Below are positions 1-33,007 of a DNA stretch of 64,000 nucleotides, in pieces. Each line of letters starts with the position of its first letter. Within the stretch, counting starts at the first letter, position 1. This DNA is from Dehalococcoidia bacterium (GTDB lineage Bacteria > Chloroflexota > Dehalococcoidia > Lucifugimonadales > UBA3495). The stretch is taken from the NCBI GenBank assembly GCA_965220245.1, contig CBDCPI010000006.1, positions 201,876 to 265,875 of the forward strand, read 5' to 3'. The notes under the pieces are model-generated. The model made no database searches. It was not told the origin of the DNA and saw only the letters and a program-made list of their open reading frames with translations. The translations under genes and the position numbers were made by a program.

Positions 1-942
1 CCGATTCAAAGCGGCACACTTTACCTTGGCTTCCACCTTCTGCTGCGGTAACTTCCTGGCCTGAAGATAGGAACCAAAGATGGTCTTGAACCGAAACATG
101 GCAGTCTCGGCCAGGGAACGCCGATGATAGCCCGACTCTTGTTTCCACCGCTTACGTCCTACCTTCCGAATCCTTCTCAGGTTCTCGTCCCGCACCAGGG
201 GCGGGGTGGCACAGTTCCCATGCTGCCAGATACGGGCATCCTTTCGAGGTGGAATTGCTACCCGCCTGACACCTCTGACAGCGCAGCCCTCATATACCTT
301 CCTTTTGTCGTAGGCCCCATCGCCACCCACCTGCTCCACTGACTCGGTGCTCTGGTCCAGAAGTTCGGGCACCGCTCCCGCATCGTCCAGGCTGGCCTCG
401 CTCAGTACCACGGCCTGGATCTCCTGGGTTTCACTGTCCACGCTTAGATGGAGCTTCCTCCAGGTGCGCCGTTTGGTATAGCCATGCTGACGCACCTTCC
501 ATTCTCCCTCCCCAAAGACTTTCAACCCGGTGCTGTCCAGTACCAGGTGCAAGGGCCCAGCAGCTTTCCTGAGCAAGGAAACCCCCAGGCGCTTGGCGCG
601 CTTGCAGAGGGTGGTATAGTCCGGCACCGGCAAATCCCACTCCAGCAAGTGAAACACGGACCGGAGAAACCCTTCGGCAGCCCTCAGGGTCAAGTGGAAG
701 ACGCTGCGCACCATCAACAGACACTGGATTGCTCCATCGGAATACTGAAACTGCCCACCGCGCTTTCGGGGGCCGTCGGGCTTCCAGGCCCCAATATCCT
801 CTTCGCTGGTCCATAGGGTTATTGAACCCCGCTGGACCAGGCTTTCGTTGTAGTCATGCCAGTTACGTATCCGATACTGGGATTTCCTGGTGGTGGTGCG
901 TTTCTTGGGACGAGCTTTGGAGGCTTGCGGTGTTCGCTTCAT
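1..942 (-). CDS. IS5-family DDE transposase; C-terminal ~15-20 aa lie outside the window
   Basis: I translated an uninterrupted minus-strand frame from ATG at 942 down to position 1. It is absent from the ORF track because it leaves the window. Sequence begins MKRTPQASKARPKKRTTTRKSQYRIRNWHDYNESLVQRGSITLW. DDE-type blocks present: LVLDSTGLKV, VGGDGAYD, RSLAETAMFRFK. Confidence 0.85.
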   Translation of the reverse strand, partial: MKRTPQASKARPKKRTTTRKSQYRIRNWHDYNESLVQRGSITLWTSEEDIGAWKPDGPRKRGGQFQYSDGAIQCLLMVRSVFHLTLRAAEGFLRSVFHLLEWDLPVPDYTTLCKRAKRLGVSLLRKAAGPLHLVLDSTGLKVFGEGEWKVRQHGYTKRRTWRKLHLSVDSETQEIQAVVLSEASLDDAGAVPELLDQSTESVEQVGGDGAYDKRKVYEGCAVRGVRRVAIPPRKDARIWQHGNCATPPLVRDENLRRIRKVGRKRWKQESGYHRRSLAETAMFRFKTIFGSYLQARKLPQQKVEAKVKCAALNR

Positions 943-983
943 GCCTCCAGCTTAACACTACCTCCCATTCATTCAACAAAGCC
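1..983 (-). mobile_element. IS5-family (IS903-group-like) insertion sequence, partial; continues beyond the window start
   Basis: Intact minus-strand transposase frame. Positions 968-983 read ttcattcaacaaagcc, whose reverse complement GGCTTTGTTGAATGAA closely resembles the IS903 terminal inverted repeat GGCTTTGTTGAATAAATC as I remember it. Confidence 0.8.
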
Positions 984-1050
984 GTGCGTCACTGTAGAAA
1001 ACCGCGACAGCAGTAAAGTCCACTGGGTGGGGGTTCAGGGCTTTTCCTGT

Positions 1051-1172
1051 GTCACCTGTCACCCTGAGCACAGCGAAGGGTCTAAAGTCCTTGATTGCAT
1101 TCCCTTGCTTCGATACTCGGATCAGGTTCTTGCTGAAGGATTTTAGATTCTTCCCCGTCGGCTCAGAATGAC
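1051..1172. repeat. Hairpin REP/MITE-like repeat, gtcaccctgagc...gaagggtctaaa / ggattttaga...gctcagaatgac family
   Basis: Two inverted half-sites: gtcaccctgagcacagcgaagggtctaaa and ggattttagattcttccccgtcggctcagaatgac. The same family recurs near 17069, 23110, 33100, 37552, 40634, 41914 and 51128. Confidence 0.8.
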
Positions 1173-1206
1173 ATTTCCCGAGAATGGAGTGGGGGGTTAA
1201 ACCCTC

Positions 1207-1632
1207 TTAAGCGGGCCGCTGTTGGAACAATGCCTCGCGCAAGCCGTCAAGGAACCCTCCCGTCCTCGCCAGGTCCTGCTCCATCAACTGCGACCTCGAT
1301 TCCAACTGGCCCATCCGGGTTTCCAGTTGGTCCATACGAATTTCCAGTTGGTCCATGCGGGTTTCCAGTCGGTCCATGCGGGCTTTCAACTCGGCTACAG
1401 CGGATTCCAGTTGGCCCACACGAATTTCCAACTGGCCCATGCGGGTTTCCAACTGGCCCATGCGGGTTTCCAATTGGCCCATGCGGGTTTCCAATTGGCC
1501 CATGCGGGTTTCCAACCGGTCAATTCGAGTCTCCAACCGGTCAAAGCGCTTGTCGGCGCGGGCAGAAGTGCCGAGCATTAGCGCTGCCAGAGCAACGCCA
1601 ACGCCTATGATTGTGATGGTTTCAGGCGTCAT
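1207..1632 (-). CDS. Membrane-anchored coiled-coil protein built from tandem heptads (RMGQLET-type)
   Basis: 141-aa ORF with an N-terminal hydrophobic segment IIGVGVALAALMLG followed by about 12 consecutive 7-aa units. The underlying DNA has 21-bp periodicity. Confidence 0.6.
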   Translation of the reverse strand: MTPETITIIGVGVALAALMLGTSARADKRFDRLETRIDRLETRMGQLETRMGQLETRMGQLETRMGQLEIRVGQLESAVAELKARMDRLETRMDQLEIRMDQLETRMGQLESRSQLMEQDLARTGGFLDGLREALFQQRPA

Positions 1633-1648
1633 TCTCGCCTCTCGTCCT

Positions 1649-2785
1649 CTACCCGCCCAGTTGGAAAAACTTACCCTCGGTCTTGATCGCGGGAGCGACG
1701 ACCATCTCTGCCTTGTGCATGTCGCGGACCGTATAAGCGCCGCACATGCCCATAGCTACCCGCAAGGCCCCGATGAAGTTCTGGGTGCCGTTGGTAGCCG
1801 ACGTGGGGCCGTACAGTATTTGCTTCAAGCTGCCCTTGGTGCCTACGCTGATGCGGGTGCCCCGCGGCAACTCTGGGTGGGGGTTGGCCATGCCCCAGTT
1901 GTAGCCCTGCCCGGGTGCCTCTTCGGCTTGGGCGAAAGGAGTGCCCAACATCACCCCGTCGGCGCCGCTGGCTATCGCTTTGCAGATATCGCCGCCGGTA
2001 CGCAGGCCGCCGTCGGTTATAACCGAAACGTAACGCCCGGTGCGGCGAAAATGGTCTTCCCGGGCTGCGGCGCACTCTAGGGTGGCCGTCACCTGGGGGA
2101 CACCAACGCCTACTACTTCTCTGGTGGTGCAAGCGGCGCCGGGACCGACACCGACTAGCACACCGTCTATCCCGGTCTCCATCAGCTCTTGGGCTACATT
2201 GTAGCTGACGCAATTGCCGACGACTACCGGCACCTTCAAGGTCTTGATCAGCTCAGAGAATATCAACCCCTGGTAGCTTCGAGACATGTGCCTGGCGGTA
2301 GTCACCGTGGACTGGACAAACACGATGTCGGCGCCGGCCTCCACGGCCACGGGTGACATCCGCTTGGTGTTCTGAGGGGTGAAGGAGACGGCGCATACGG
2401 CGCCGGACTGGCGGACTTCTTGGACCCGCTGGCCGATCAACTCTTCGCGGATCGGCTCCGAGTAGACTTGTTGCAGGTAACCAGTGACGTCCTCCTGCGG
2501 GGTGGAAAGGATCTCTTCCAACACCGAATAGGGGTCATCGTAGCGGGTGTAGAGGCCTTCGGCGTTGAGTACGCCCAAGCCCCCCATTTTATGCATCAGA
2601 ATCGCGAACCGAGGCGAGACCGCTCCGTCCATGGCAGAGGCCATTACGGGAATCTCAAAGGTCTGGTCCCCGATGGTCATCTTAGTCGAAGTCAGGTCGG
2701 GATTGATGGTCACCTGCCCAGGAACAATCGCCACTTCGTCAAAACCGTAGGCCCTTTCCAGTTCCTTAAAAAGGCGTTTCCCCAT
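1649..2785 (-). CDS. IMP dehydrogenase-family protein, GuaB3-like, no CBS pair
   Basis: 378 aa. IMPDH/GMPR TIM-barrel signatures present: VGVGPGAACTTREV and ITDGGLRTGGDICKAIASGAD. Length and lack of a CBS insert fit the IMPDH-related GuaB3 group. Confidence 0.8.
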   Translation of the reverse strand: MGKRLFKELERAYGFDEVAIVPGQVTINPDLTSTKMTIGDQTFEIPVMASAMDGAVSPRFAILMHKMGGLGVLNAEGLYTRYDDPYSVLEEILSTPQEDVTGYLQQVYSEPIREELIGQRVQEVRQSGAVCAVSFTPQNTKRMSPVAVEAGADIVFVQSTVTTARHMSRSYQGLIFSELIKTLKVPVVVGNCVSYNVAQELMETGIDGVLVGVGPGAACTTREVVGVGVPQVTATLECAAAREDHFRRTGRYVSVITDGGLRTGGDICKAIASGADGVMLGTPFAQAEEAPGQGYNWGMANPHPELPRGTRISVGTKGSLKQILYGPTSATNGTQNFIGALRVAMGMCGAYTVRDMHKAEMVVAPAIKTEGKFFQLGG

Positions 2786-3009
2786 CCCTGCTTACCTCGA
2801 AATAATGGGTGAATTTTTAGAAGATAAGTGCTTCGGGGCGGCCATCGCTCAGGGGAAGAATCCAACGGTAATCCTTCTTCGAATGTAGCAGGAAGGAAAC
2901 GGGAAAGTCAATATAATCAGCTTGAGAGAATGCTAGGGTCTGCGGTTGAGGTGGCCCAGCCGAGAGTTTATATAACAAAACTGCAACATAATGTTAAATG
3001 GATAGCCCC

Positions 3010-3038
3010 TTGCACCCTTGTGAAAAATGGTGCATACT
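3010..3038 (+). promoter_or_regulatory. Possible sigma70-type promoter for the 5S rRNA gene
   Basis: TTGCAC at 3010-3015, a 17-nt spacer ending in TG, then CATACT at 3033-3038. It lies about 15 nt upstream of the 5S 5' end. Confidence 0.3.
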
Positions 3039-3052
3039 TTGACCTTAGTTGC

Positions 3053-3173
3053 TTCCTGGTGGTTCTAGCGAGGCGGCCCCACCCGTTCCCATCCCGAACA
3101 CGGAAGTGAAACGCCTCAGCGCCAACGATACTGCTCTGGTAACGGGGTGGGAAAATAGGTCACCGCCGGGAGG
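3053..3173 (+). rRNA. rrf: 5S ribosomal RNA, not linked to a 23S gene in this window
   Basis: cctggtggttctagcgaggcggccccacccgttcccatcccgaacacggaagtgaaacgcctcagcgccaacgatactg...gggaaaataggtcaccgccggga matches the bacterial 5S consensus, including CCCGUUCCCAUCCCGAACACGGAAGU. The terminal helix pairs tcctggtgg with ccgccggga. Confidence 0.88.
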
Positions 3174-3331
3174 CACTTCGAAGCACCAAGCCCTGCTGGG
3201 CGATGCCGATTTTAGAAGGCCAGACCTCCATCTAACGGACAGGTGCAACCAGCCCGGCTTGGGCGACGAAATCCTACTCTGATCGGCATTGCTCCTAGCC
3301 ACAAATTGCGTCCAGACCAGCTTAGCCTGCC

Positions 3332-3360
3332 TTTACACTATTTGGGGCGTCGCCTATAAT
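3332..3360 (+). promoter_or_regulatory. Near-consensus sigma70 promoter upstream of clpC
   Basis: TTTACA at 3332-3337, exactly 17 nt of spacer, TATAAT at 3355-3360. It would give a ~145-nt leader before the clpC ATG at 3510. Confidence 0.55.
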
Positions 3361-3509
3361 TGGACAAAGAGAGCAACCGCGCTATTGCATGCCCGGGGAT
3401 AGGGGGGCCGGTCCGGGATGTTCATCGTAGCTGCTCCGTTAAGCCATTTTGGGTAGAAGCAATATATCCGGTCCAATGGTCCTCACCCTGACCCACTAGG
3501 AGCGGAATC

Positions 3510-5972
3510 ATGGGAAGCAGATTCGAGAAATTCTCCGAACGTGCCCGTCGTGTACTATCGCTAGCCCAGGAAGAAGCCCAGCGCTTCAACCACAACTATA
3601 TCGGGACCGAGCATATCCTCCTCGGACTTGTGCGTGAGACCGAGGGGGTCGCCGCGCGAGTCCTCTCTAGTTTAACCGTCGACTTGGGCAAAGTCCGCTC
3701 TGCAGTAGAGTTCATTATCGGCCGAGGGGAAAAGCCCCCCCAGGGTGAGATTGGACTTACGCCGCGGGCGAAAAAGGTAGTGGAGTTGGCGGTCGATGAA
3801 GCCCGCCGCATGAACCACACTTATATTGGCACTGAGCATCTGCTAATTGGTCTGATGCGAGAGGGTGAAGGGGTAGCCGCCGGCGTTTTGGAAAGTCTTG
3901 GCGTGACTCTGGACAAAGTCCGTGCGGAAACCCACCGCATTTTGAGCAACACCGGCAGCACCAGTTCCTCCGGCGCCAGAAGCAGCACCCGCACCCCCAC
4001 GCTGGACCAATTGGGCGTGGACTTGACCGTTGCCGCCCGGGCCGAGAAGCTGGACCCGGTAATTGGCCGGGAACAGGAAATCCAACGGGTAGTCCAAATC
4101 CTCAGCCGCCGGACCAAGAACAACCCGGTGTTGGTAGGAGAGCCCGGAGTTGGCAAGACCGCGATAGTCGAAGCTTTGGCACAGCGGATTGGCAACGGCA
4201 CCGTGCCAGACACCCTGCAAGGGAAACGGCTGGTCACACTGGATATGGGCGCCTTGGTCGCCGGTACGAAGTACCGGGGCGAGTTTGAAGAGCGGCTGAA
4301 GAAGGTCATCGAGGAGATCAAGTCCTCGGGGAATTGCGTTCTATTCATCGACGAGATTCACACCATCGTGGGAGCTGGGGCTGCGGAAGGCGCGGTGGAC
4401 GCTTCCAATATTCTCAAGCCCTCACTGGCGAGGGGCGAACTCCAGTGCATCGGCGCCACCACGTTGGATGACTACCGGAAGTACGTGGAGCGGGACCCGG
4501 CATTGGAGCGGCGGCTCCAGCCGGTGAAGGTGGAAGAGCCCTCCCAAGATGAGACTGTGGACATCCTTATGGGGGTCAAGGAGCGGTACGAGGAACACCA
4601 CAAAGTGGATATTACCGACGCCGCCATCAGGAGTGCGGCTACCTTGGCGGCCCGCTTTATCCCTGATCGCTTCCTCCCGGACAAAGCGATTGACCTGATC
4701 GACGAAGCGGGGTCCAGAGTGCGTCTGCGGGGCAGCGTAACTCCAGCGCCGCTTAAAGACGCGATTCAGGTGTTGGAGCAGGTCCGGAAGGAAAAGGACG
4801 AAGCCATCGCTTCTCAGCAATACGAGGCGGCGGCTGAGCTTCGTGACCGGGAGCTTCACGCCAACGAGGACCTAGACACCCTGGAGCGGGAATGGCAGGA
4901 GGGTCGCGATAAAGAGCGCTCGGTAGTCACCGACGAAGACATCGCAGAAGTGGTCAGCATGTGGACCGGTATTCCCGTCACCAGGCTGGCGGCGGAAGAG
5001 ACCGAACGGCTCCTTCGCATGGAGGAGGAGATCCACCAGAGGATCATCGGCCAGGACGAAGCTATCGTCAACATTTCCAAGTCGGTCCGCCGGGCTCGGG
5101 CCGGGCTGAAGGACCCGCGCAGGCCCATTGGCGTATTCATGTTCCTTGGCCCTACCGGAGTGGGCAAGACCGAGTTGGTGCGGGCGCTGGCCGAGTTCAT
5201 GTTTGGTGACGAAGACAACATGATCCGCTTGGACATGTCCGAATTCCAAGAGCGCCACACGGTCGCCCGGCTGATTGGCGCCCCTCCGGGATATGTGGGC
5301 TATGACGAAGGCGGTCAGTTGACCGAGGGTGTACGCCGTAAGAACTACTGCGCCGTGTTGCTGGACGAGATAGAAAAGGCCCACCCCGAAGTGTTCAACA
5401 TCCTGCTCCAGATCTTTGACGCGGGCCAGCTCACCGACGCCAGGGGCAGGCGGGTAGACTTCCGCAACTCCATCCTGGTCATGACCAGCAACCTGGGGTC
5501 TGACCTGATCAAGCGGGAAACCACCTTGGGTTTCAGCATCAAGAGCGACGATGCCAAAACCGACGAGAGTTCCTACCAGCGGATGAAGGACAAGGTGATG
5601 GATGAGGTCAAGCGCTTCTTCCGTCCCGAGTTCCTTAACCGTATCGACGCCACCGTGGTATTCCACCAGCTAAGCCGGGTGGAAATCCTAGCCATCGTCG
5701 ACCTGATGATGGACCAAGTACGGAAGGAGTTGGCGGAAAAGGAAGTGGACTTGGAGCTGACCGACGCCGCTCGGGACTACCTGGGTGAGAAGGGCTTCGA
5801 CCCGGTGCTGGGCGCCCGGCCGTTGCGTCGGCTGATCCAGAACGAGGTGGAAGACACTCTCTCCGATGACTTGTTGAGCGGCAGGATCAACCCGGGGGAT
5901 GTGGCGGTTATCGACGCCGAGGAAGGCCACATAGTGGTCCGCACCAAGGTGGTGGCCGAAACCCCGGCTTAA
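3510..5972 (+). CDS. clpC: ATP-dependent Clp protease ATP-binding subunit ClpC
   Basis: 820 aa. Duplicated Clp_N repeats ([14 protein letters not shown] and [14 protein letters not shown]), two P-loops (GEPGVGKTA and GPTGVGKTE), a UVR-like linker ([13 protein letters not shown]), and an AGGAG RBS before the ATG. Confidence 0.95.
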
Positions 5973-25574: not shown

Positions 25575-26906
25575 CTGACAAGGGTAGGCATTTGATTGTT
25601 TCAGGTTTCTGCATGGTAGATGAGCTTCATATCGGGCGACGGTTCCGGCCACGGTTCAGGAAGCAGCCAGACCCTGCGCCAAAGTCTGCCCTTGGGCAGC
25701 AGCCGTCTCAGCCAGATGATGCCCTGCCGCAGTACACTGATAGTCCGTTTGGGAGCGCTCCAAGCGCTGCGGTGAGTGGACGCCAGAGCCTTCGGCGGTG
25801 CTCTGAGATGGCCGGGCGCTATGCCAAGCTCATTGGCGTCTTCTACCCTGGTCCCATACGCCAGCGTCCAGAACGTCGCCACCGACAACGCAAGCCAGTG
25901 CCTCGCCACCCGTTCGGGATCGGTCCTGCGAGTGTTCTGCCACTGCCACCCCAAGCTCTTGAGTGCTCTGAAGCCCAGTTCTATCCAGAACCGGAGCATG
26001 TACCAGCACACCCCTGCTTCGCCGGGCGGCAGGTCGGTCATCACCACCCACGGCTCGTCTTGGCCCTGGTCCCAGACCACAATCACCGTCCCGCGGCGGC
26101 GCTTGCTGCTGTCCCTGAAAGCCGTCCCGGACCCAACATATGCGTGCCCCGGCCCCGGCACCAACGCTCGCGCCGGCAGGCGGGTTCCTCCGTCAGGGCA
26201 GAACACGGTGTTGACCGATTGCCGCATGTAAGGATGCCACCCCACAGAGCGTATCTGCTCCCACAGCCGCGGACTCCTCAAACCGCGGTCAGTCATCACC
26301 AGCACGCTCATGTCCGGCGGCACCGCTTCGGACAGCAACTTCAGCAGACTCACCGCCGGCGCTATCCACTGCCCGGGTTTGTTGGCGGGCAGGATGTGCC
26401 AGGCCACCGGAATAGCGCAACTGCGATAGACCACGCTTATCGCAATGGCGTTTATCCGGTCGCCCTTCATCGTCGGGTCTATGGCAAGCACCAATCTGTC
26501 AGACTTCCACCAATTGAGAATCCATCGCAGCAGTGGAACGAAGCACAGTCTGACATCCAACTGCACTCCGCACGGGTTGGCGCGGTCCTGCCCATTGTAC
26601 AGCCCTCCCGGAGATACTGCCGTATGCTGTTGAAGTTGCCTATGAACGAAAGCTCAGCGGCGACCGCGTTCTGGCAGCCGCTCTGGGCCATTATGATGCC
26701 GTACACCCACAGGACCAGTCCCTTCAACTGAGACCCTCTGAGATGCGGCATGTAGTATTGTATGGTCTGCTTCATCTGGTAGTATTCGGTTGGGAAGCGC
26801 ATGGCGAACCTCTGGCAGCCTTTCTGATTCTCACCAAAAAGATGCCAGAAAGCTGTGCGCTTTCCAAGTTCTTATGCCTATTTCATACTTTGCCTACCCT
26901 TGTCAG
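25575..26906 (-). mobile_element. Complete IS4-family insertion sequence (1332 bp) with an 11-bp target-site duplication
   Basis: Perfect 16-bp terminal inverted repeats: CTGACAAGGGTAGGCA at 25575-25590 and TGCCTACCCTTGTCAG at 26891-26906. They are flanked by direct repeats CTCCCTCTGGG at 25564-25574 and 26907-26917. Confidence 0.9.
25601..26802 (-). pseudogene. IS4-family DDE transposase split by a frameshift into two ORFs (26802-26479 and 26566-25601)
   Basis: The N-terminal ORF ends ...NSIRQYLREG. The second frame continues LYNGQDRANPCGVQLDVRLCF.... DDE blocks LAIDPT and LVMTDRG are present, plus the IS4 Y-(2)-R-(3)-E-(6)-K signature in YMLRFWIELGFRALK. The frame change lies near the G-rich run gggagggc around 26600. 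Confidence 0.8.
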
Positions 26907-29095: not shown

Positions 29096-29599
29096 TTATG
29101 CAAAGGTCTCCTTTTGTATATCTTCCTCGAAGGGTGGTCTGAACCCGTCCTTGCCCTCGCCCAACTCCGGCAAAGTGTCCTTCAACACGTCGAAGCCCAT
29201 TCTGTAGTGCTCCAGGTACTCGGTACGGAACGACTTCCGGTCACAACCCAACTTCTGGGCCATCAGGTCGAACGCCTTGTCGCGGGTCCCGGCCAAGAAC
29301 TTCCCTCGTTGGAAGTGGAAGGGTTGGGCGATGAACTTCCGGACGCCCGTGCCGCAAAGGCTGTCGGCGAAAGCATCGGGGCTACTTACCAGCAGCGCGT
29401 CCCCAGTCAACACCACCAATCCCGGGAAGTGGGCCGCTTGCTCTTCAATCCAGCTCTGGGTGGCTTTGGCCTCATCCACATGGTAAGGAGTCAACTCCTG
29501 GTTCAGGGACACCTGGGCCTCTTGGGCAAACAGATGCACCAACCCCAATTGGCGGCCTCCTTCCCACATCCCCCAGCAACTCTTCCCGTCTACGGCCAC
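29096..29599 (-). pseudogene. Transposase-like remnant (DDE-type, N-terminally truncated)
   Basis: The 167-aa ORF begins directly with AVDGKSCWG...LVHLFAQEAQVSLNQ...VDEKA-like and ...VVLTGDALL blocks, reminiscent of ISAs1/IS4-type catalytic cores. There is no room upstream for the N-terminal domain. Confidence 0.4.
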
Positions 29600-29697
29600 T
29601 GTGAATAGGATGGGGGTGCCTTACGGCGGCTTCAGGCAAGGGAGGACAAAATAGTACTGGAAAGAGGCGGGCTTATAGTGGAAGACTTTGAAGGGAT

Positions 29698-30167
29698 TTA
29701 TATGGCCTGCTTGACGACCCTGACTGATGCCCCTTGTTTGTCCGACTCTATTATTTCAACGCCATCTGGTATGAAATGGGCGTAGGTTCTAACGTAATAC
29801 TCCGCCAGGGTTTCTTTTCGCTTTTCGTTATAATCCCGCAAAACAAAAGGATTTTCCGGTATTCATCTGGTGCCAAGTAAAACAAGAACATCGCTTCGTT
29901 CCAGGCATGCATTTTTCCTGTAGGGGTATTGCCGTTTCTCATCCAAGTATGGCATTTGCATTCCACCAACACCCGCATTCGCTCTGAACCCAAATCAAAC
30001 TGGTGTTTCTTCTTCTCCCTAAGCCCTATTTTGAGTTCAAACGACCTTGTGAGTTCCAATCTCTCAAGTCGCCTGAAATATTGTTGGGCAGTTATTTCAA
30101 ATTCTTTGCCCACGACCGGGTTTTCTTTCCCGTCGGTATTCTTGAAGATGTCATTTGAAATGGCCAT
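29698..30167 (-). pseudogene. PD-(D/E)xK nuclease-like small protein, interrupted by a frameshift
   Basis: ATG at 30167 after AAGGAGG. Core FDLGSERMRVLVECKCHTW has the D...E-x-K pattern. After ...DEYRKILLF the track frame degenerates. Shifting one base within the T-run cttttgtttt gives LRDYNEKRKETLAEYYVRTYAHFIPDGVEIIESDKQGASVRVVKQAI, ending at 29698. The segment is AT-rich. Confidence 0.55.
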
Positions 30168-30211
30168 CGTCAATCCCTCCTTTTCGCTCGGGATACGGCG
30201 GCCTTCCTACC

Positions 30212-30490
30212 TCAACCGCCGTTGCCCCGTCTCGCCCAGGCTATCGCATCCGCCACGTCAGTCTCGATTATACCCCGTTTCGCTAGCTTCTCCCTCACCG
30301 CGTCCACCGGAGAGATGTGAACGGGCGTAAGCACGATGCAGCCGTTCTTTTTAGTCACGTCGAAATACTCGATTCCCCCAAAGACTGCCCTCGCCTCTTC
30401 CAGGAAAGTTAGCTGGTTGGTGCCAGTCCGTTTTGCAAGCGTGTCGATTTCCTCGTTAAAGTCCTTGGAACAATGGGCCTTTACCGTCAT
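30212..30490 (-). CDS. Small antitoxin-like protein, possible ribbon-helix-helix N-terminus
   Basis: 92 aa. The N-terminal beta-alpha-alpha pattern TVKAHCS / DFNEEIDTLAKRTG / NQLTFLEEARAVF resembles CopG/RHH antitoxins. The gene sits 38 nt upstream of the nuclease-like gene on the same strand. Confidence 0.4.
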   Translation of the reverse strand: MTVKAHCSKDFNEEIDTLAKRTGTNQLTFLEEARAVFGGIEYFDVTKKNGCIVLTPVHISPVDAVREKLAKRGIIETDVADAIAWARRGNGG

Positions 30491-30563
30491 TGTAATCTAT
30501 TATCTCCGTAATCTATTGGCCCCGCCAACGGGATACAGCCGGACCGTCACTGCCCCGTACCTC

Positions 30564-30917
30564 TCAGTTGACCAACTCCGCTAGGCGGTAAACCAAGCGG
30601 CGCACCCGGTCTCGGTCTCTAGCTATGGTCCGGTCGTTCATACTGTCCTCGTACATATTGCGGTGCAGCCGGCTGGCGCGCCTAAACCAGTGTATTATGC
30701 GAGTGTCGTTAAGGTTGTGAGCCAAGCGTTCGGTGACGTCAAAAAGGTCATGGTGGCTTTCGTTGCGCCAGCCCCAATGTTTGGCGGCGGCCTTGACTGC
30801 GTGGACTGCTGCGCACCAGAGGATTTCCGAGCGCAGTAGCCGGTTCCGCAACGCGATGGAGTGGTCCGCCAAATCGAGAAACTCCACCGCCGCGGCGATG
30901 TGGGCACGGGGATTCAC
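30564..30917 (-). CDS. PaREP1/HEPN-like helical protein B1 (retains an R-x4-5-H motif)
   Basis: 117 aa. LRSEILWCAAVHAVKAAAKHWGWRNESHHDLF...FRRASRLHRNMYED. The GTG start overlaps the stop of the upstream gene as GTGA. Confidence 0.65.
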   Translation of the reverse strand: MNPRAHIAAAVEFLDLADHSIALRNRLLRSEILWCAAVHAVKAAAKHWGWRNESHHDLFDVTERLAHNLNDTRIIHWFRRASRLHRNMYEDSMNDRTIARDRDRVRRLVYRLAELVN

Positions 30918-31270
30918 TCGTTCAGTGCCTGTAAGTTCTCGATGAAACGCTGGACTGTCTCGCGAGAGTAATCTATTTCGTATGATTTCATAAAGTCGCG
31001 GCGGGCGTTTTCAAGGCAGTCTTCGGCGGCCCCGAACTCTGCACCCAGGTCGGGGTCATAGCCGGACTCTTCGGACAGGTGTTCGGCGAAGTCGCCCAGG
31101 TCGTCGGGGGTTTCGTGGGGCCAGCCTCGCTGTTTGGCGACGATGGCGACCAGCGAGGCGGCGGCGTCCCAGAGCTTTTGCGAGCCGAGGCGGACATCGT
31201 CGGCGTCAAAAGCCCGGTCGGCCTCTTTGATGATGTTACGGGCAGCCTGGATTTGTTCCGGTGTCAGCAT
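30914..31270 (-). CDS. PaREP1/HEPN-like helical protein A1 (degenerate motif)
   Basis: 118 aa from the ATG at 31270: MLTPEQIQAARNIIKEADRAF...GSQKLWDAAASLVAIVAKQRGWPHETPDDL...ENARRDFMKSYE. Confidence 0.65.
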   Translation of the reverse strand: MLTPEQIQAARNIIKEADRAFDADDVRLGSQKLWDAAASLVAIVAKQRGWPHETPDDLGDFAEHLSEESGYDPDLGAEFGAAEDCLENARRDFMKSYEIDYSRETVQRFIENLQALNE

Positions 31271-31331
31271 AGTTGAGTTATTCTCTCTATGGCGAGTATC
31301 AGTTAGGCCGACTGCGCTGGGCAGACTCCGC

Positions 31332-31685
31332 TCAGTTGACCAGCGCTTCAAGGCGATAGACCAGGCGGCGCACCCGGCCCTGGTCTCTGGCTATGTCCCG
31401 GTCGTTCATCCTGCCCTCGTACATATTGCGGTGCAACCGGCCAGCGCTTCTGAACCCGGACCTCAGATAATCGTTGCCAAGGTTACGCGCCAGATTCCCG
31501 GCAATATGAAAGAGGTCATCATGGCTTTCGTTGCGCCAGCCACGTTGTTTGCCGACGGCCTTGACTGCATGGGCGGCGGCGCACCAGAGGATTTCTGAGC
31601 GCAGCAACCGGTTTTGGAGCGCGATGGGATGGTCCGCCAAATCCAGGAAGTCCAAAGCCGCGGCGATGTGTTCCCTGGGATTCAC
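31332..31685 (-). CDS. PaREP1/HEPN-like helical protein B2, paralogue of B1
   Basis: 117 aa. LRSEILWCAAAHAVKAVGKQRGWRNESHDDLF...FRSAGRLHRNMYEG. GTGA start/stop overlap with A2. Exactly 768 bp from B1. Confidence 0.65.
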   Translation of the reverse strand: MNPREHIAAALDFLDLADHPIALQNRLLRSEILWCAAAHAVKAVGKQRGWRNESHDDLFHIAGNLARNLGNDYLRSGFRSAGRLHRNMYEGRMNDRDIARDQGRVRRLVYRLEALVN

Positions 31686-32038
31686 CTGGTCAGCGCCTGC
31701 ATGTTCTCGATGAAACTCTGGACTGCATCGCGGCAGTCGTCCAATTCGTATGGTCTCATAAAATTGTGTCGGGCGTTGTCGAGAAGGTACTCGGCGGCCC
31801 CGAACTCTCCACCCAGGTCCGGGTCATAGCCGCGCTCTTTGCCCAGATATTCGGCGGCGTCTCCCAGGTCACTGGGGGTTTCGTGGGGCCAGCCTCGCTG
31901 TTTAGCGACGATGGCGACCAGTGAGGCGGCGGCGTCCCAGAGCTTTTGCGAGCCGAGGCGGACATCGCCGGCGTCAAAGGCCCGGTCGGCCTCTTTGACG
32001 ATGCTACGGGCAGCCTGGATATGTTCCGGCGTCAGCAT
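31682..32038 (-). CDS. PaREP1/HEPN-like helical protein A2, paralogue of A1
   Basis: 118 aa from the ATG at 32038: MLTPEHIQAARSIVKEADRAF...GSQKLWDAAASLVAIVAKQRGWPHETPSDL...DNARHNFMRPYE. Confidence 0.65.
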   Translation of the reverse strand: MLTPEHIQAARSIVKEADRAFDAGDVRLGSQKLWDAAASLVAIVAKQRGWPHETPSDLGDAAEYLGKERGYDPDLGGEFGAAEYLLDNARHNFMRPYELDDCRDAVQSFIENMQALTR

Positions 32039-32119
32039 GGTTGAGGACACTCCCTTTTGGCGGCTAATCATCATCCAAAACAATGACCGTTAATGAGAGC
32101 ATACGGGGCGAAATCCGGT

Positions 32120-33007
32120 TTATCGCGCCGGCATATACTCCCCAAACCACCCCAAAGTCTCCGCCATGACCTCGCTGAAAGCCGGCTCGACATAGACCTC
32201 GTAGTGCCCATAACCCTTCAAGACCACCAACTTCTTCGGCTCGCCGGCGTGGGCGTACAGTTGCTCCGACTCCTCCGGCAAGACCAAGCGGTCGTCGTCG
32301 GTGGTGATGAACAGTATGGGCCTGGGCGAGATTTTGCCCACGATCCACTCCGGGTTGAACCCGATGGTGTCATCGACGTATTCCATAGGAATAGTGCTGA
32401 CCGCCGCCGGGTTATGCCGCCGGGCTTCCTCGGCCAGCTTGGCCGACTGGCGGTCCGGCAGCAGAATCTCGCTGCGCTCCACCATTTCCGACTGCCCGGT
32501 GGCGGCCCGTTGCTCCCGGTCATGCTGGGAGCGCTCTTGCAAGTCGTACCATTCGTCCACCCGGCGGACCCGGCTCATCCAGCGGGCGCCGTGGCCGATG
32601 CCCACCACGCTGACGATGCACTTGGCCCGGGGGTCCACCGCACCGACCCAAGAGACGGTGGCCCCGCCGTAGCTGGTGCCGTACAAGCCGATAGCCCCGG
32701 AGTCGACCTCCGGCTGAATTCCCAAGATGGTCATAGCCGCTTGGACGTCCATCACCCGGCTGTAGGGGGCCAGCCGGGAGCGCGAGCCCTCACTGCCTCC
32801 CCATCCTTTGTAGTCGAAGGTCATCGCCACGTACCCGGCCTCATTCAAAGCCCGGGCGTTGTCAGGCAAGTAAAGGTCTTTAACTCCGGTATAGCCGTGA
32901 CAGAGCAAGACGGCCGACCGTTGCTCTCCCGGGGCAAGGCCGTCGGGGACATAAACGTCGCCGCAAAGCTTGAACCCCTCGCTGTAGAACTCGATTTCCC
33001 GTTTCAT
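32120..33007 (-). CDS. Alpha/beta hydrolase (dienelactone hydrolase/peptidase S9-like)
   Basis: 295 aa. Contains LLCHGYTG, the nucleophile elbow GTSYGG, and a C-terminal GYGHYEVY. Confidence 0.8.
   Translation of the reverse strand: MKREIEFYSEGFKLCGDVYVPDGLAPGEQRSAVLLCHGYTGVKDLYLPDNARALNEAGYVAMTFDYKGWGGSEGSRSRLAPYSRVMDVQAAMTILGIQPEVDSGAIGLYGTSYGGATVSWVGAVDPRAKCIVSVVGIGHGARWMSRVRRVDEWYDLQERSQHDREQRAATGQSEMVERSEILLPDRQSAKLAEEARRHNPAAVSTIPMEYVDDTIGFNPEWIVGKISPRPILFITTDDDRLVLPEESEQLYAHAGEPKKLVVLKGYGHYEVYVEPAFSEVMAETLGWFGEYMPAR

Follow-up and report, generated by a model that had tools for sequence, protein, structure and literature searches.

What can two small related proteins do when their genes overlap at the stop and start codons, and when this arrangement is itself present twice in a row? 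The question is raised by four genes in a 64,000-nucleotide stretch of a Dehalococcoidia metagenome assembly (GenBank GCA_965220245.1, contig CBDCPI010000006.1, positions 201,876 to 265,875), hereafter the window. We refer to the upstream and downstream gene of each pair as A and B, respectively. An original prediction, made from the letters alone, had described them as a candidate HEPN effector (B) with a degenerate HEPN partner (A). As detailed below, both proteins belong to the PaREP1 branch of the HEPN fold and the pair is kept together across distant relatives. The explanation that we favour, at about an even balance of probability, is that A and B are ancient PaREP1 paralogues which work as an obligate asymmetric A:B heterodimer with a single intact site.

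Tandem copies of an overlapping gene pair

The four genes lie on the minus strand. A2 (32038-31682, 118 aa) starts with an ATG at 32038 and stops at 31684-31682. It is followed by B2 (31685-31332, 117 aa), which starts with a GTG at 31685, and, after a 61-nt spacer (31271-31331), by the second copies A1 (31270-30914, 118 aa) and B1 (30917-30564, 117 aa). At both junctions, accagGTGAatccc and aacgaGTGAatccc, the GTG of B overlaps the TGA of A within the four bases GTGA (31682-31685 and 30914-30917, respectively), a putative signal for translational coupling. A repeat search of the window recovered two 768-bp units, A2-B2 and A1-B1 (30560-32038, minus strand), as direct repeats at 768-bp spacing with 78-82% nucleotide identity; starts, overlaps and stops of the two units are in each case exactly 768 bp apart. 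The four reading frames, their period and both overlaps are therefore as originally described. At the protein level, A1 and A2 are 77% identical and B1 and B2 71%, close to the three quarters estimated by eye. A and B are also related to each other, with 30-33% identity over a full-length alignment and, when the two families were compared profile to profile, a probability of 99.6% (E=1.6e-24, 117 columns). This is in agreement with the proposal of a duplication of a duplication.

Homologue searches returned 37 clusters for B and 8 for the A type found in the window. The ratio of nonsynonymous to synonymous substitution rates (dN/dS) was below 1 in 13 of 13 comparisons and was put at 0.16-0.56 for both partners, with values of 0.56 for A1/A2 (the highest), 0.27 for B1/B2 and 0.07-0.35 against orthologues. 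Because of the many homologues and of these dN/dS values, A2, B2, A1 and B1 are judged to be real coding genes rather than chance open reading frames (ORFs). Synonymous divergence (dS) between the copies is 0.25 for A and 0.70 for B. Both units are old duplicates, and the lower dS of A together with a long identical stretch shared by the A copies suggests partial gene conversion between them. The guanine-cytosine (GC) content of the units, 0.57-0.63, resembles that of the flanking genome. A foreign origin of the units was considered and rejected because of this host-like composition; low GC is confined to 29600-30200. A scan for promoter and terminator consensus sites gave counts not above shuffled expectation, with none in the B2-A1 spacer. 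One Logan contig (L001) is 100% identical to the window.

Fold and conserved residues of A and B

The Pfam profile PF05942 ('Archaeal PaREP1/PaREP8 family', gathering score 24.4 bits) matched all four proteins above threshold, with 25.7 bits for A1, 29.0 for A2, 38.6 for B1 and 38.0 for B2. The match is full-length in B2; in the A proteins it is restricted to profile positions ~3-77, the N-terminal two thirds. A profile of the A domain returned 85 clusters, many of which are proteins of 124-128 aa that we call type 2. These type-2 A relatives, as well as A domains fused to another protein (see below), fall below the PF05942 threshold. B1 additionally gave a weak, sub-threshold match to the HEPN profile PF05168 (E=0.037). 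A search of NCBIfam with these proteins provided no usable match, and none of the four matched any defence model of PADLOC-DB 2.0 at E<=10. Among PDB sequences, B1 alone found no match, and the B profile reached 2jpu/2q00 with a non-significant E=0.25, H85 being aligned to their histidine. Since sequence searches of the PDB were too weak, we compared folds.

AlphaFold2 produced a B1 model with a mean predicted local distance difference test score (pLDDT) of 97.4 and a predicted template modelling (pTM) score of 0.91 from 38 homologues, with helices at 3-17, 20-24, 26-47, 55-69, 73-90 and 95-116. The A1 model, from 50 homologues, has five helices (pLDDT 95.4, pTM 0.89). In Foldseek searches of the PDB, 2q00 ranked first for both models with template modelling (TM) scores of 0.67-0.79 (0.72-0.79 for B1). 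This Sulfolobus solfataricus protein is given as the Parep1/8 structure (PMC3710099). B1 also superposed on AF0298 (2hsb) with a TM score of 0.86 and a root-mean-square deviation of 2.1 at 15% sequence identity, and 2hsb matched A1 as well. Further matches included the HEPN domains 4nqf, 1wol, 1o3u, 1ufb and that of sacsin (3o10); HepT toxins were found with both A and B. Profiles and predicted models together place A and B in the PaREP1 branch of the HEPN fold, B as a typical and A as a degenerate member. The original assignment to PaREP1/HEPN was correct, as judged by the Pfam scores and the Foldseek matches.

An R-x4-5-H motif retained in both B copies had been proposed as the active site of a HEPN RNase. 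The strings FRRASRLH and FRSAGRLH are literally present in the B copies, but their arginines are not conserved. In an alignment of 38 B-type proteins, R79, R80 and R83 of B1 are freely replaced: R, K, N, S, G, I, H, Y or Q occur at position 79 and R, S, Q, W, N, L, H or I at position 80. In a wider-family alignment (152 domains from the 150 best representatives), arginine at position 79 was found in only 14/152. The canonical Rx4-6H motif of HEPN RNases is thus not a conserved feature of the B family, and of the proposed motif only H85 withstands the comparison.

Another set of residues is strongly conserved. E31, H55, D57, F78, A81, L84, H85, N87, M88, Y89 and E90 are, among others, invariant in the 38 B proteins and R86 is nearly so. 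In the wider family, H85 is kept in 140/152 domains, E31 in 135/152 and H55 in 127/152. B2 retains E31, H55 and H85-R-N-M-Y-E, and neither B copy has lost a family invariant. Beyond the start codon, B2 shows no difference from P0004 over the aligned length, and A2 is 99% identical to P0038. In the B1 model, E31 falls in helix 2, H55 in the insert between helices 2 and 3, at the start of insert helix 55-69, and H85 at the end of helix 3. Anantharaman et al. describe for the HEPN active site a conserved acidic residue of helix 2 near the motif, and place the motif histidine at the C-terminal end of helix 3; proteins of the AF0298-type HEPN-T group have an alternative histidine in the insert between helices 2 and 3 (PMC3710099). 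For Parep1/8, the same source notes 'Lacks R but H is conserved'.

The A proteins depart from B at each of these places. Position 31 is Q in the window type and L in type 2, the aligned position 55 is P or an acidic residue and never His, and position 85 is L, Q, R, M, W or K; N88 is kept. In A2, the family residues E, H and H are replaced by Q31, P55 and L86. By alignment, B keeps all three predicted HEPN-T site positions (E31, H55, H85-x-N87), and A has lost all three. The PaREP1 trait, a conserved histidine with the arginine of Rx4-6H absent, is displayed by B and not by A, and A is considered a degenerate member because the motif histidine is not kept at position 85. The division into a degenerate A and an intact B hence stands as originally proposed, although not on its original basis, since the residues which separate the two are not those of R-x4-5-H.

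B and A can now be set beside the described HEPN-T proteins. With PaREP1/PaREP8 (HEPN-T(Parep1/8); 2q00/2jpu, S. solfataricus ORF c02003) they share the Pfam cut-off, the best fold match and, in B, the lost arginine and kept histidine. That family was described from thermophilic Crenarchaeota, whereas the present proteins come from metagenome assemblies of Dehalococcoidia (Chloroflexota) and form a fixed pair in which the degenerate member is always encoded ahead of the intact one, with overlapped stop and start, and in which A is often the C-terminal part of a Hydantoinase_B protein. The AF0298 type (2hsb) provides the best superposition for B and a histidine in the helix 2-3 insert comparable to H55. 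It keeps the basic residue and lacks the motif histidine; B shows the reverse at the motif, where His is kept and Arg varies, and has both histidines.

Pairing of A and B and possible roles of the pair

All stop-to-stop frames of the relatives' loci were searched with hidden Markov models of the two families. An A-type domain directly upstream of B was found in 15/15 foreign loci first examined, in L025 and in two further lineages (L027-L031). B without A occurred in none of the B-bearing loci examined outside the source genome, all of them from Dehalococcoidia/Chloroflexi where named, so that the adjacency and coupling seen in the window are conserved well beyond it. In the relatives, the A/B junction reads GTGA, ATGA or TTGA, TGATG or TAATG, or a TGA with an ATG right behind it. 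Even lineages that share only ~35% identity in A and ~45% in B have such an overlap or abutment. Distance matrices of A and B are correlated (r=0.89 over 17 pairs, r=0.68 within type 1), and in a Mantel test not one of 5000 permutations gave so high an r. From this correlation, the A-B pair is inherited as a unit.

The number of pairs differs among close relatives: two in the window, one in L002 and A only in L020. The A without B, 99% identical to A2, was found in a close relative on five contigs (L020-L022). When this locus was aligned to the window, similarity ended 27 nt into B2 and resumed just downstream of B1, which marks a deletion of ~1.16 kb that took away B2, A1 and B1.

In 11 related loci, A is not a separate protein. 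It forms the last ~120 aa of a protein of 700-713 aa, called as one gene, in which a complete Hydantoinase_B domain (1-519 of 519, E~5e-175) is followed by a weak PaREP1 match. The A-domain profile search did not return these 700-aa proteins, although they are present in the loci analysed, and 11 is the count among those loci. At most junctions the boundary between the HyuB part and A is a leucine with no start codon, and B lies directly behind HyuB-A with the same stop/start overlap. The HyuB part is similar to N-methylhydantoinase and caprolactamase beta; in alignments, characterised HyuB structures (6yra_B, 7hk5) cover no more than residues 3-572 of the fused protein. The neighbourhood is conserved, with HyuA, then ThuA, MDMPI, hydrolase and thiamine pyrophosphate (TPP) enzyme genes on the other strand, variable Uma2, MFS or leucine-rich repeat (LRR) genes, and finally HyuB-A and B. 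Genes for HyuA and HyuB subunits are normally adjacent. In L017-L019, with HyuA at the locus start and HyuB-A at ~7.9 kb, 6.5-7.5 kb lie between the two, an arrangement kept in the three genomes; the block in between holds ThuA, MDMPI/DinB, hydrolase and TPP-enzyme genes in the opposite orientation.

Type-2 pairs have another context. They start 30 nt after a class III aminotransferase gene of the glutamate-1-semialdehyde aminomutase type, between IDH-MDH and Sdh-NUDIX-NAD kinase-Nuo genes, in separate genomes. In neighbour-joining trees with type 2 as the outgroup, free window-type A and B branch within the clade of fused proteins. Because of this nesting, the free state of A and B in the window is probably secondary; that these trees carry no support values speaks against too firm a belief in such a fission. 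In this scenario, the module would have been released from the HyuB fusion, tandemly duplicated long ago and then differentially lost in relatives.

How could an asymmetric A:B heterodimer work? One messenger RNA would yield both proteins, B having no start context of its own. Ribosomes finishing A would re-initiate at the GTG of B within the GTGA overlap, which could give roughly equimolar synthesis of A and B at the same place. If the pair resembles HEPN dimers, whose functional cleft is formed where the two subunits meet, it would have a single intact polar site rather than two. B would supply E31, H55 and H85-x-N87, plus the lineage-specific R29 and R86. A, replaced at all three positions, might serve as the structural or regulatory half and, in many lineages, might also tether the complex to HyuB. 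The likely substrate would be RNA or a nucleotide. Direct contact between two such domains is suggested by natural fusions: at least 13 of the top 150 PaREP1 representatives contain two PaREP1 domains in a single protein, several with the histidine in only one of them, and by the Rosetta-stone argument such two-domain proteins point to domain-domain interaction.

Two-subunit arrangements are known from other HEPN systems. HepT is a dimer with its motif at the interface, and the type VII toxin-antitoxin system HepT-MntA (HEPN-MNT; 5yep, 6m6u, 7bxo, 7ae9) resembles the present locus in fold and in consisting of two small-protein genes. Its partner, however, AMPylates the toxin, whereas here the partner is a HEPN paralogue, no MNT was seen and the arginine is not conserved. 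In agreement with what was originally noted, no MNT-type or NTP_transf match was found among the ORFs annotated within ~10 kb or in related loci, a survey that did not include every small ORF. In Cas13, two HEPN units together form a composite site, and the 'two HEPN motifs to cut' of Las1 are alike in concept, a functional cleft being built from two HEPN units. Both units carry Rx4-6H there and both are needed for cleavage, while in the A-B pair one partner keeps the conserved residues.

Several points weigh against the heterodimer. The orphan A implies that A can persist alone. Our literature search found no biochemical characterisation of any PaREP1 protein, and the association of A with B, the role of the site and its substrate are all things that we infer. 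Finally, the canonical catalytic arginine is absent, and the 'site' could therefore be a patch for binding a ligand or a partner, or be purely structural.

A different explanation is that the unit is a type II toxin-antitoxin (TA)-like system in a variable, TA-rich patch, with B a toxic HEPN RNase and A a dead paralogue which blocks the active B:B dimer. We consider this possible but rather doubtful. The gene order and the 4-nt overlap are like those of antitoxin-then-toxin operons, and the sole broken pair is an orphan A, the deletion having taken the B genes, B never being found without A in the loci examined. Yet the supposed antitoxin is fused in 11 loci of conserved synteny to a complete hydantoinase-B-type enzyme of ~580 aa, an arrangement ill-suited to a labile antitoxin, and it has no DNA-binding domain for autoregulation. 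The copy number, which varies from two pairs here to one in L002 and A only in L020, would suit a mobile TA unit. So would the downstream slot with its swappable toxin-type genes (a small gene plus PIN_3 in L002 and L020, a low-GC gene of 140 aa here) and the Uma2 genes, insertion sequence elements and restriction-modification hot spot near related loci. The deeper type-2 pair nevertheless sits in core-metabolic synteny in separate genomes, which is untypical of mobile type II TA, and the vertical co-inheritance of A and B and their host-like GC also disagree with it. A HEPN domain that conserves polar residues is usually an RNase of biological conflicts; here the catalytic arginine of Rx4-6H is not conserved and PADLOC found no match. 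In favour of a toxin, Makarova et al. explicitly left open in 2013 that paREP1 proteins could be toxins whose antitoxin had yet to be identified (PMC3632139).

A metabolic accessory or regulatory module seems unlikely to us, though part of the genomic context invites it. Here A:B, a pair of small helical subunits, would bind a nucleotide, a metabolite or, as proposed for MtlR, mRNA and modulate the ATP-dependent hydantoinase/lactamase HyuAB or neighbouring amino-group metabolism, and the copies in the window would be leftovers with a generic regulatory role. The HyuB-A fusion with its coupled B, diverged to ~58-71% identity, recurs in 11 loci, but the characterised HyuB enzymes are without any such domain, and HyuA lies 8-10 kb from HyuB-A, so that the enzyme context is itself unusual. 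Type-2 pairs follow directly downstream of the class III aminotransferase in a conserved core context, and an Aminotran_3 gene is located ~5 kb upstream in L020 and L021. Against these associations, the pair is under purifying selection, and even duplicated, where no hyuB is adjacent, and its function therefore cannot depend on the fusion. The HEPN fold falls in the nucleotidyltransferase substrate-binding clan, and a precedent exists in the HEPN protein MtlR, which regulates a metabolic operon (PMC3710099). MtlR-type inactive HEPN proteins are encoded with metabolic genes and were proposed to bind rather than cut (PMC3710099). The likeness to the HyuB-fused and aminotransferase-adjacent contexts is one of idea only, MtlR being without conserved polar residues; the strongly conserved His/Glu/Asn set of B looks more like a catalytic site than like a scaffold.

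Quite unlikely, in our estimate, is an intermediate proposal in which an A:B HEPN heterodimer is tied to primary metabolism, covalently through A to HyuB in one clade and by co-transcription with the aminotransferase in another. The state of the enzyme or of its ligand would then gate a single-site HEPN RNase or RNA-binding unit, a metabolic enzyme thereby acting directly on RNA control, and free pairs such as those in the window would be the released effector. That both units are merely redundant, functionless duplicates kept by chance in a rearranging region is very improbable: the deletion in L020, the truncated radical-SAM gene, the foreign low-GC insert and the high A1/A2 dN/dS of 0.56 would agree with decay, but none of the four reading frames is broken, the coupling signal is still in place, every dN/dS is under 1, the invariants remain in both B copies and the copies are old (dS 0.25-0.70) and both retained.

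Returning to the heterodimer, PaREP1/8 is a sizeable HEPN branch, and its function is a small but genuine question that the A-B configuration makes testable. The always coupled intact and degenerate paralogues come from mesophile-type bacterial metagenome genomes. Natural variants comprise the free pair, the duplicated pair, the orphan A, A fused to HyuB and the two-domain fusions, and this set allows direct tests of heterodimerisation, of toxicity and of the role of E31, H55 and H85. A HyuB-HEPN fusion, if functional, would connect core metabolism with a fold of the conflict type. Current understanding is not overturned by any of this. In our literature search we found no Dehalococcoidia PaREP1 lineage, no fixed pair of a degenerate and an intact HEPN protein with stop/start overlap, no HEPN-Hydantoinase_B fusion and no reported function for PaREP1/8. 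The original remark that no such bacterial architecture was known has to be qualified, tandem Parep genes in one operon having been noted for archaea in 2013 (PMC3710099).

Relatives and genomic surroundings

In the representative library, the matches of the B profile fall into 1123 clusters at 50% identity. When one genome per species was scanned with B-specific peptide patterns, which cover the B lineage and not other PaREP1 lineages, B was placed in 13 loci, all from metagenome-assembled genomes of Dehalococcoidia/Chloroflexi. The archaeal, mostly thermophile distribution with lineage-specific expansions known for the family, a descriptive trait and not a structural one, is therefore not that of the B lineage. 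The two-domain PaREP1 proteins P0124, P0127, P0129, P0130, P0132, P0136, P0143, P0154, P0158, P0159 and P0207 measure 239-314 aa; the motif histidine is present in both domains, in neither, or in a single one, the other then having R, S, E or W. Several relatives also carry a stand-alone canonical PaREP1 gene of 144-148 aa (Pfam 69-70 bits) on the opposite strand downstream of A or B. It lies 0.3-0.6 kb downstream in L003 (6969-7406, minus), L005 (6972-7415, minus), L028 (1242-1676, minus) and L027 (a fragment, 1754-1918), and 3.5 kb downstream in L020 (13818-14252, minus). The window has no such gene.

On the left, the pairs are bordered by an upstream alpha/beta-hydrolase gene (32120-33007, minus; Pfam Hydrolase_4, Abhydrolase_1 and Peptidase_S15), a conserved flank with 77-78% nucleotide identity to L002 and L020. 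Downstream comes a gene of 92 aa in antitoxin position (30212-30490, minus), which is not part of the A-B pair, is 87% identical to L002 6460-6690 and has no Pfam match. In L002, L020 and L022, the orthologue of this gene is followed by a PIN_3 gene. Here its place is taken by a 140-aa gene (29751-30173, minus) with a GC content of 0.45-0.47, compared to ~0.6 in the flanks, giving an apparent toxin swap when the two-gene segment of the window (29751-30490) is set against L002 6460-7100 and L020 10475-11132. The 140-aa gene has no Pfam or PDB sequence match, and its label as a nuclease goes back to a D...ECK string seen by eye only.

Further downstream, what had been taken for a transposase remnant is a truncated radical-SAM/DUF5131-like gene (29096-29599, minus), 74% identical over its C-terminal 104 aa to L020 12829-13821. 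Its N-terminal part is unrelated to the L020 gene; the remnant closes the variable segment on the far side and marks a rearrangement breakpoint near 29400. Because of the swapped neighbour genes, the low-GC gene and this remnant, the region 29.4-32.1 kb is taken as a stretch undergoing rearrangement, with conserved flanks on either side. Elsewhere, the window contains mostly metabolic genes plus one DDE transposase. This DDE_Tnp_1 ORF (25601-26566, E=5e-7), located between DUF1501 and DUF1800 genes, was the only transposase-type match among the neighbours scanned.

Among related loci, genes for putative endonucleases of the Uma2 family (PF05685) recur in L017 (5494-7777), L018 (7040-7786), L002 (3715-4578) and L020 (7586-8140); in L017, three tandem copies lie directly upstream of HyuB-A. 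In L003, from a Dehalococcoidia genome, the same place is occupied by two LRR proteins of 597 and 321 aa (911-3792; LRR_1, LRR_4 and LRR_8, E down to 6e-51). Some 2.5-4 kb downstream of B, between BNR/Sortilin-like and HbpS-like genes, is a slot whose restriction-modification genes differ from genome to genome: an NgoFVII/PLD-type gene in L017 (13975-15999), BglII plus an N6_N4 methylase in L027 (3870-5467) and an MmeI/Eco57I-type gene in L028 (3816-5761). Judged by its content, this slot near HyuB-A and B looks like a defence-gene hot spot.

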